Part shown: piece by piece, positions 3,001 to 6,000 of the stretch | Layout: each line of letters begins with the position of its first letter | How positions within the stretch are numbered: position 1 is the stretch's first letter | DNA from: a virus | Lineage: Duplodnaviria; Heunggongvirae; Uroviricota; Caudoviricetes | Direction: 5' to 3' (one strand) | Virus record (IMG/VR): IMGVR_UViG_2537562194_000018 | Coordinates: 1-6,042 of that record | DNA: 6,042 nt | Made by a program: the position numbers

Positions 3001-6000
3001 CAGTCAGAGGAGGCGTCCTCGTCCTCGGCTTCTGCGGCCGCTCAAAAAGCCAGTGAGTCATCACAAAGTGCAGCAGAAGCTGAATTGTCAAGAAAGACGG
3101 CAGAAAGTGCAGCCGGTAATGCAGCCAGGGATGCAACGACCGCAACAGAAAAAGCCCGGGAGTCAGCAGAAAGCGCACAGTCAGCGGAACAAAGCAGGAT
3201 AGCGGCGGAAGAGGCCGTAAACCGAATCCCCACCGTGGTGGGACCTCCCGGGCCAAAGGGGGAACAGGGGCCCGCGGGTCCTCAGGGGCCGAAGGGTGAT
3301 AAGGGAGAGCGCGGTGACACCGGCCCTGTCGGGGCAACCGGCGAACGGGGACCGGCAGGTGATGCTGGTCCGGCAGTCCCGCAGGGGCCGAAAGGTGACA
3401 GGGGAGAGCGGGGAGAGACCGGTCTGACGGGAAATGCAGGTCCTCAGGGTCCAAAGGGAGATACCGGTGCGGCAGGCCCGGCAGGCCCACAGGGACCGAA
3501 AGGAGAAACAGGTGCGGCTGGCCCGGTGGGGGCAACCGGACCTCAGGGGCCGAAGGGCGACCCGGGGGAGACGCAAATACGGTTCCGTCTGGGGCCGGGA
3601 AACATTATTGAGACAAACAGCAATGGCTGGTTCCCGGATACAGATGGTGCGCTCATCACCGAACTGACCTTTCTTGACCCCAAAGATGCCACACAGGTTC
3701 AGGGGCTGTTTCGGCATTTGCAGGTCAGGTTTGGTGACGGGCCGTGGCAGGATGTTAAGGGGCTGAATGAAGTGGGCAGTGATACAGGCAGAACAGGAGA
3801 ATGACATGAATATACTAAAAAACTTATGCAGCGTCTGTGTGGTTGCGGAAAGCATGATGGCCGTGAACACGTGCAGTCGCTTACAGCACAACTGCGACTG
3901 GGGCCGGCAGACATCCTGGAGTCAGATGAGAATGGCATTATCCCGGAGCAGGACAGGGTAATCACGCAGGTGGTGATACTGGATGCGGATAAAAAGCAGA
4001 TACAGTGCGTGGTAAGACCGCTGCAAATCCTGCGTGCTGACGGGACGTGGGAAAATATTGGCGGGATGAAGTAACCCGACAGCTTCACAAAACCGGAGTC
4101 CGGCTCCGGTTTTTGTGTTGCAATGTCCGGGGGATATTTGTTAAGTAGATGATAGAGGAGCTAATTCAACAGGGAGATAAATTAATGCCGATAAATCTGA
4201 CATCTTATTTGGGGTTACAGGGGGCGAAAGTTGTCCCGGCAGTTGTTTTTTCTAAAATTTAGTCTTGTTGGGGTAAATGACATATGCCATTGATAACATC
4301 CAGCATTTCATCAAATGTTGCTTTGCAGAGTATTGAAATATTACGTGAAGCTGCCAGACAAAACCTGATAACGAAAGATATTACTATAAATGGGCAGAAA
4401 GTTGGTATTCATTATTATCAACGCCCTGACGTTTTTTTAGTTTCTGGTTGTAAGCTAGTGAATTGGTGGCACTGAAATATATAAAACCATATTAAGTATC
4501 AATATGAAAATTCCCGTTCTCCAACCTGGCTTCAACTTTTTTGCCCCTGCTGGATACTCTGCTGCCGTTGCTCCTAATCGTGCTGAAAATGCCTATGCGG
4601 ATTACGTTTTGGATATAGGTAAGCGAATACCGCTTTCCGCAGCAGATTTAAGCAACGTATACGAAAGTGTAATTCGCGCCGTCCATGACAGCCGTAGCAG
4701 GCTCATCGATCAGCATACGGTCGATATGATTGGCAACACTGTACTTGATGCGTTGAGCCGATCACAAACATTTCGTGATGCCGTAAGCTATGGCATTCAT
4801 AATGAGGAGGTACACATTGGTTGCATTAAATACAGAAACGAATACGAGCTTAACGGAGAATCTGCTATCAAAATTGATGATATTCAATCACTAACCTGTA
4901 ACGAATTATATGGATACGATGTCGGGCAAGAACCAATTCTCCCCATTTGCGAGGCAGGAGAAAACGAGAACGAAGAGCCTTATGTCAGTTTTAGTGTTGC
5001 GCCAGATACTGATTCTTATGAGATGCCATCGTGGCAGGAAGGACTGATTCACGAGATTATTCATCATGTTACTGGGGCCAGCGATCCATCTGGAGATAGT
5101 AATATAGAGCTAGGACCCACCGAGATTCTCGCACGTCGTGTCGCTCAAGAGCTGGGATGGAGTGTTCCCGACTTCAAAGGATATGCAGAGCCAGAACGAG
5201 AAGCTCATCTTAGACTACGTAACCTGAATGCCCTTCGACAGGCTGCCATGAGGCATGAAAAGAATGAGAGGGCTTTCTTCGAAAGACTGGGTACGATCAG
5301 TGACCGATATGAGGCGAGTCCTGATTTCACAGAGTATTCCGCTGTGTCAAACTGAACCGCCCCGGAAATCCTGGAGACTAAACTCCCTGAGAAAGAGGTA
5401 AACAGGATGACTAAAAATACTCGTTTTTCCCCCGAAGTCCGTCAGCGGGCGATTCGTATGGTTCTGGAAAGTCAGGATGAATATGACTCACAGTGGGCGG
5501 CAATTTGTTCCATTGCCCCAAAGATTGGCTGTACGCCGGAGACTCTGCGTGTCTGGGTTCGCCAGCATGAGCGGGATACCGGGGGCGGTGATGGTGGGCT
5601 CACCAGCGCTGAACGTCAGCGTCTGAAAGAGCTGGAACGTGAAAATCGTGAACTGCGCCGCAGTAACGATATCCTTCGCCAGGCTTCCGCTTATTTTGCG
5701 AAGGCGGAGTTCGACCGCCTCTGGAAAAATGATGCCACTGCTGGATAAGCTGCGTGAGCAGTACGGGGTCGACCGGTATGCAGCGAACTGCATATTGCCC
5801 CGTCAACGTATTACCATTGTCAGCAACAGCGACATCATCCGGATAAACGCAGTGCCCGTGCGCAGCACGACGACTGGCTGAAGAGAGAGATACAGCGCGT
5901 ATACGATGAAAATCATCAGGTGTACGGTGTGCGTAAAGTCTGGCGTCAGTTGTTACGGGAAGGAATCAGGGTGGCCAGATGTACAGTGGCACGTCTCATG

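Follow-up and report, generated by a model that had tools for sequence, protein, structure and literature searches.

What is the second copy of a tail-fibre tip domain that lies directly behind the side tail fibre gene stf in the 6,042 nucleotides examined here (positions 1 to 6,042 of IMG/VR virus record IMGVR_UViG_2537562194_000018, Caudoviricetes; hereafter the window)? The original prediction, made from the sequence alone, described a tandem, divergent duplication of the fibre C-terminal domain, the second copy being stranded behind an in-frame TGA and mismatched to its ribosome-binding site. The comparison with relatives indicates that the second copy is very probably a conserved, separate gene of 89 codons situated behind a collagen-like stf (hereafter the small gene), here frameshifted by one missing A. 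The apparent stranding reduces to a trivial frameshift, or to a homopolymer error in sequencing, that affects a gene both ordinary and already known.

The duplication itself is well founded. The stf gene (2484-3804; this and the other elements of the fibre region are given on the + strand) encodes a collagen-like side tail fibre recognised by Pfam PF08400, PF01391 and PF06820, and corresponds to an intact coding sequence (CDS) of 1314 nt in 95NR1 and O111 11128. The fibre's own C-terminal Phage_fiber_C domain (PfC copy 1) occupies 3577-3768, residues 255-318 of the open reading frame (ORF) 2815-3804, and was matched by PF06820 with 117.2 bits (E 4e-34), while PfC copy 2 (nt 3886-4071, residues 21-82 of ORF 3826-4074) scored 123.6 bits (E 4.1e-36), the cut-off being the gathering score of 25 bits. 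Alignment of the two copies gave 24 identities in 62 positions (39%) and a BLOSUM62 local score of 117, compared with 23.1 +/- 4.2 (maximum 44) for 2000 shuffles (z = 22.5), so that the tandem divergent duplication is confirmed. The elements described between the copies are also present: the stf stop TGA at 3802-3804, a Shine-Dalgarno sequence AGGAG at 3795-3799 within the last stf codons, an ATG at 3806 in frame 2 and an ATG at 3826 in frame 1, which is the frame of stf.

The frames are explained by a run of A residues. When the window was aligned base by base with the closest complete genome, 95NR1 (99.8% identical), and also with O111 11128, a run of six A was found at 3817-3822 where the relatives have seven, and this 1-nt deletion was the sole difference at the junction. 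Because of the lost A, the ATG served by the Shine-Dalgarno sequence opens frame 2 and the domain sits in frame 1; the same deletion is the reason why PfC copy 2 shares the stf frame. With the seventh A restored, ATG 3806 reads MNILKKLMQRLCGCGKHDGREH... and continues through the PfC domain to TAA 4072-4074 in one frame. Without it, the window copy has no uninterrupted 89-codon frame from that ATG, as the frame shifts after codon 5. Comparison with relatives showed that only the first five codons of the frame-2 product (MNILK) are authentic, rather than the approximately 22 protein-like codons that had been attributed to it. What remains open is a frame of 82 codons from the internal Met8 (3826-4074), which is matched by PF06820 and contains an LCGCGK motif as well as PfC copy 2.

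The intact form of the gene is annotated in RefSeq as a separate CDS of 270 nt (89 codons and the stop codon) under the name "phage tail fiber C-terminal domain-containing protein". In two genomes that share 99.8% and 99.0% identity with the window, this CDS (WP_001023407.1 and WP_001023381.1) begins at the ATG corresponding to 3806. This start codon (3806-3808) lies one base past the stf TGA, which is the CDS end in RefSeq. A scan of IMG/VR gave 283 relatives, and the junction figures refer to the 80 loci kept, one of which was picked for its A6 run while the other 79 were collected independently. The A7 run and the 89-codon ORF were found in all 79 of the independently collected loci. The junction reads CAGGAGAATGAC|ATG in 76 of the 80 and CAGGAGAGTGAC|ATG in two more, and all but two of the 79 junctions of the expected form read GGAGAATGAC|ATG or GGAGAGTGAC|ATG. 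The stf TGA precedes the small-gene ATG at every junction examined. In the A7 relatives, therefore, AGGAG does serve the gene of the conserved domain, and the second copy is not a fragment mismatched to its ribosome-binding site. One option of the original prediction, a separate small gene starting at 3806 and broken by a 1-nt indel, was right about the gene and about the indel, which lies at 3817-3822 and not near 3870.

Another option was that the fibre once spanned both PfC domains and that TGA 3802-3804 is a recent nonsense mutation. Within the window this has some appeal, given that the two domains share a frame and only seven sense codons follow the TGA, but the relatives make it barely credible. 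The TGA and the GGAGAATGAC|ATG junction are conserved in the related loci examined, from long- and short-tailed phages, whereas the shared frame is not: in the relatives the small gene and stf are in different frames, so that read-through of the TGA could not join the two domains and copy 2 was never a read-on of the fibre. No E. coli-type fibre with two PfC domains was found in a profile search of 1.84 billion representatives. Both PfC types are conserved and mutually distinct in every related locus examined, which suggests that the duplication is old, with separate genes, and not recent.

The small PfC gene is already catalogued, as PHROG 576, in RefSeq, as ORF68 of phage Sp5 and as gp59 of phage phi24B, and its arrangement behind stf is standard in lambdoid phages of enterohaemorrhagic Escherichia coli (EHEC) and in Shiga toxin (Stx) phages. 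That it should be the most unusual structure in the window is consequently not borne out: RefSeq and PHROGs both carry annotations of it, and the Sp5 pair ORF67/ORF68 was the subject of discussion in 2016 (PMC5155283). The protein with the A restored was matched by PHROG 576 (phrog_576, 89 positions) over residues 1-89 of 89 (E 6.4e-60), is identical to proteins on at least 1000 contigs, and has 100% matches among the IMG/VR loci. It consists of a 27-residue N-terminal extension (MNILKKLMQRLCGCGKHDGREH...) and the divergent PfC. The PfC-only family is narrow, with 81 representatives among 1.84 billion proteins in the profile search, and its named homologues are nearly all from Escherichia or Citrobacter rodentium.

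The closest described system is that of Sp5, an Stx2 phage of O157:H7 Sakai, in which ORF67 (ECs1228), a collagen-like fibre ending in PfC, is likewise followed by an 89-codon PfC-only gene, ORF68 (Mondal et al., 2016; PMC5155283). Sp5 differs from the window in being short-tailed, in having a fibre of the 649-residue class with a different N-terminal part (437 in the window) and in the small gene being intact. ORF67 was found to be essential, whereas ORF68 was classed as non-essential, Sp5 without it still being infectious, and as a possible intragenomic reservoir for fibre variation (Mondal et al., 2016; PMC5155283).

The reservoir proposal would make the small ORF spare DNA for recombining the C-terminal tip of the fibre, its product being irrelevant. 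Applied to the present gene we consider it unlikely, since the 51 distinct alleles of the small gene gave pS 0.108 and pN 0.013 (synonymous and nonsynonymous polymorphism, respectively), that is a pN/pS of 0.12 with the N-terminal extension and its LCGCGK motif included, and a reservoir alone leaves such constraint on the protein unexplained. The small gene is under purifying selection at the protein level. Its PfC part has a pN/pS of 0.095 compared with 0.25 for the fibre's own PfC, and the N-terminal extension is constrained too, with the LCGCGK motif conserved. The Shine-Dalgarno sequence and start codon are conserved as well, peptides of the small protein have been detected, and 39% protein identity between the copies leaves little DNA homology for exchange. 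Two exchange-like public proteins, P0063 and P0121, speak for the proposal, although both are known from draft contigs, so that a deletion or a chimeric assembly may account for them.

These two proteins and a third, all from public E. coli drafts, join parts of the locus in other ways. P0063 has collagen repeats joined directly to the small gene's PfC, P0121 has the small gene's N-terminal part joined to the fibre's PfC, and in P0066 a fragment of the tip attachment protein J is joined to the PfC of the small gene. All three may be artefacts of assembly, or else genuine products of deletion or recombination in prophages undergoing decay. A further candidate, that LCGCGK is the lipobox of a lipoprotein or signal peptide, was rejected by inspection only, the N-terminus having no hydrophobic core.

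As for expression, ribosomes finishing stf would already be at the start of the small gene, the Shine-Dalgarno sequence being embedded in the last stf codons, and the layout of Shine-Dalgarno sequence, TGA and ATG suggests translational coupling of the small gene to stf. A homologue of the small gene is expressed during phage production. In the portion of the phi24B virion proteomics supplement examined, two peptides unique to the small-protein homologue, ADGTWENIGGMK and VITQVVILDADKK, are listed with three counts each, and a C-terminal peptide of the fibre with 47 counts (bioRxiv 10.64898/2026.04.10.717836). Both small-protein peptides are identical to the window's small protein. As in the window, the lateral fibre gp61 of phi24B has a collagen-like shaft and a small C-terminal globular domain of the same family. 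phi24B differs in being a podovirus; the counts are low, and the authors left open whether the peptides derive from gp59 alone or from a fusion. The search database included hypothetical fibre-gp59 fusions, with the authors' note "Spike or just gp59?" (bioRxiv 10.64898/2026.04.10.717836); in the part of the peptide table examined no fibre-gp59 junction peptide was present, even with those fusions in the database.

The absence of such a peptide from the examined part of the phi24B data bears on another explanation, in which the two domains are joined by recoding: A7/A6 slippage (or ribosomal frameshifting), together with read-through of UGA-C, would yield a fibre with two tandem PfC knobs, and the shared frame in the window would represent a working state. 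Several features of the A6 state are compatible with it. The second domain is then in frame with stf behind TGA-C, a weak stop. From ATG 3806, CTA AAA AAC forms a canonical X_XXY_YYZ heptamer (A_AAA_AAC, 3817-3823) at which a -1 shift would restore the PfC frame, A6 recurs in unrelated genomes, and the C. rodentium junction is equally long. The collagen-like protein P0142, with four tandem PfC-like modules, also lends it some plausibility. Against this, the slippery heptamer exists only through the deletion, the relatives having A7 and a continuous frame, and A6 is rare (four of 697 complete records and none of the 79 unselected IMG/VR loci). Moreover, the RNA at 3780-3900 folds with a stability like that of its shuffled versions (z -0.04), with no stimulatory structure, no frameshift signal was found by Mondal et al. 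(PMC5155283), and the C. rodentium copy is part of a decayed prophage in which the fibre is interrupted by internal stops. Recoding is therefore most unlikely. A related idea, that the A7 run is a contingency tract in which loss of an A puts the second PfC in frame with the fibre and gives altered tips through read-through or -1 slippage, is in our judgement highly unlikely too; if true, such a tract would allow the architecture of the fibre tip to be switched heritably by simple means. By reasoning, a prfB-like +1 shift at GAA-UGA-C was also judged unlikely, as the P-site GAA should not re-pair in the +1 frame.

P0142 (565 aa) is only a distant collagen-like relative. Its four tandem modules, each ending in a PfC-like motif (VVVLDAD...GILQVRRADGTW.EIP), are followed by Gly-X-Y repeats, and it shows that PfC-like modules can stand in series within one chain. 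P0146, P0168 and P0174, considered as tandem-PfC fibres, were rejected as false positives driven by repeats.

To return to the missing A that separates the window from the conserved 89-codon gene, it has to be asked whether the deletion is real. Against 95NR1, four indels of one base each were counted over the 6 kb of the window (a T inserted at 2791, A7 to A6 at 3817-3822, A6 to A5 near 5720-5724 and GG to G at 5771) compared with nine substitutions, six of which are clustered at 3860-3891. Such a proportion suggests a sequence-quality problem in the source assembly. The deletion at 3817-3822 may itself be a sequencing error, because there are three further indels against 95NR1, including one that no complete E. 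coli genome shares. That one is the extra T at 2791 (CCGG-T-AGG), which splits stf in the window into ORFs 2484-2810 and 2815-3804 and which was seen at none of 6929 homologous places in 2346 complete E. coli records. Given four single-base indels relative to a genome 99.8% identical, the frame anomalies of the window should not be over-read.

Two side observations concern these differences. The indels near 5720-5724 and at 5771 lie in the insertion sequence IS1203, the former inside the annotated AL1L pseudoknot region of the programmed frameshift of its transposase. The substitutions at 3860-3891 change DREHGELL to GREHVQSL in the N-terminal extension of the small protein, both being common alleles in other prophages. 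The cluster has the look either of gene conversion among prophage copies or of paralogous prophages merged into a chimera during assembly.

Some observations weigh against regarding the window simply as a damaged copy of an 89-codon gene whose product matters. The exact A6 junction was found in four of 697 complete-genome records and is thus not private to the window. In two complete genomes A6 occurs together with an intact stf and an 82-residue ORF annotated by the Prokaryotic Genome Annotation Pipeline (PGAP). The exact 82-residue product of the window is present on 164 public contigs, compared with at least 1000 for the exact 89-residue form. Its presence in complete genomes and on these contigs makes A6 a recurrent allele. 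Synthesis of a functional 82-residue product from Met8 might thus still be possible: should the deletion be real, re-initiation after stf at ATG 3826 might give a product that keeps LCGCGK and the whole domain. On the protein side, the virion peptides are few and could be carry-over, an AlphaFold2 monomer model of the small protein from a 10-sequence alignment was unusable (predicted local distance difference test 51.5, predicted template modelling score 0.36), and a sequence search of the PDB with either PfC copy returned nothing meaningful. The phi24B authors likewise obtained no confident AlphaFold model for the PfC-type domain (bioRxiv 10.64898/2026.04.10.717836). The C. rodentium copy was considered as a natural 78-residue form starting from Met8, and set aside as uninformative, since it belongs to a decayed prophage whose fibre has internal stops.

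If the small gene encodes a functional protein, its role may be sought in the properties of the domain. The window stf has the architecture of the EPclA type (PfN, coiled coil, collagen and PfC), with 437 codons in relatives. This PfN-PCoil-Col-PfC arrangement is shared with EHEC prophage collagen-like protein A (EPclA), e.g. ECs2717 (Ghosh et al., 2012; PMC3368898), from which the window stf differs in bearing the private frameshift at 2791. The PfC of EPclA is reported to be a trimer when alone by size-exclusion chromatography with multi-angle laser light scattering, Col-PfC to refold fast, PfC to re-nucleate the collagen helix, and recombinant EPclA expressed alone still to trimerise; in the passages searched, no mention of a downstream PfC-only gene was found (Ghosh et al., 2012; PMC3368898). 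Since PfC can trimerise autonomously, the small protein probably assembles into a trimeric knob by itself, with the qualification that trimerisation is known for the copy-1 type of PfC only and that the small protein was predicted as a monomer only. This PfC trimer would tune adsorption from the tip of the fibre, as an accessory knob or adaptor that the phage can dispense with, a role that we propose tentatively, as possible rather than probable. It is favoured because of the position of the gene, the low-level virion peptides and the four serial modules of P0142. The phages whose fibres it accompanies are vehicles of Shiga toxin and of type III effectors, and if the small protein modulates adsorption it would bear on their host range.

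No match of the small protein to a tail-fibre assembly (Tfa-type) family was found, its PHROG matches being only to the tail-fibre families 576 and 13758, and PF06820 was its sole Pfam hit. A small gene directly 3' of the fibre gene and last in its operon is also a feature of lambda stf-tfa and of the fibre-plus-assembly or fibre-plus-adhesin gene pairs of P2 and Mu. The present gene differs from these, its product being a paralogue of the fibre tip and not of the Tfa fold. In published tests, neither trimerisation of the fibre nor infectivity depended on it (PMC3368898 and PMC5155283). An obligatory chaperone role was therefore rejected: recombinant EPclA trimerises alone (PMC3368898) and ORF68 is non-essential in Sp5 (PMC5155283).

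The small gene is widespread. It was found in 296 phage records, including the isolates 2B8, Evi, phi330, 2851, 1717 and VT1-Sakai and many Stx1 and Stx2 converting phages, and of 5426 complete E. coli genomes, 688 contain the junction, the median being five copies per genome. In a short-tailed Stx2a phage, a 649-residue fibre with an unrelated N-terminal part has the same fibre end, junction, small gene and downstream hairpin. This G+C-rich hairpin with a U-run (4086-4117) lies directly after the small-gene TAA and folds with -23.1 kcal/mol (z -4.0, none of 200 shuffles as stable); a simple scan for terminator patterns did not call it and direct folding revealed it. It is likely to be an intrinsic terminator closing the fibre operon. 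The first approximately 42 nt past the small-gene stop are kept in long- and short-tailed phages, followed by divergence into cargo, and it is at the hairpin that the tail module gives way to variable effector genes.

These observations bear on the remaining option of the original prediction, an alternative receptor-binding module acquired by cassette exchange, which stands in part: the fibre PfC end, the small gene and the hairpin form a unit common to long-tailed lambda-like and short-tailed Stx phages with unrelated fibre N-termini. The mobile unit thus seems to consist of the collagen shaft end with its PfC, the small PfC gene and the terminator. A tfa-type tail-fibre assembly remnant is annotated in 95NR1 and O111 11128 at the position equivalent to 4076-4152 of the window, and its PGAP pseudogene label is 'tail assembly protein; frameshifted; incomplete; missing N-terminus'. 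This unit may have taken the place of the distal portion, stf-tfa, of a fibre locus of the lambda type, with which a tfa remnant would fit.

The surroundings of the gene vary in two of its homologues. In the isolated phage 2B8 (L088 4462-7546) the annotation places the start of the small gene at an alternative codon further upstream, which gives a 102-aa protein overlapping stf, and a 79-residue 'tail fiber assembly protein' remnant is found 2.5 kb further on, past effector cargo genes; cargo seems to have been inserted between the small-gene terminator and the old tfa remnant. The C. rodentium homologue (L084 2470-2740) has the junction ATGAACATATTGAAAAACTTATG, as long as the frameshifted form of the window and with the Shine-Dalgarno-served ATG out of frame, and is located after a fibre remnant with internal stops and before an NleG effector gene.

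The window as a whole is the distal tail region of an EHEC lambdoid prophage, with J, lom, stf, the small gene, the terminator and effector cargo in that order. Pfam recognised the C-terminal two thirds of the J tip attachment protein at 22-1755, Lom at 1826-2425, the prophage tail fibre N-terminal domain in ORF 2484-2810, collagen repeats and Phage_fiber_C in ORF 2815-3804, the NleC zinc protease effector (Peptidase_M85) at 4504-5355 and the IS3-family transposase of IS1203 from 5407 onward. Over its whole length the window shows 99.8% identity with two O111 outbreak strains, 95NR1 and 95JB1, the insertion of IS1203 in nleC included. The 3' end of nleC is cut by IS1203 (from 5353 onward) in the window as in these two strains, and the gene is intact in O111:H- 11128.

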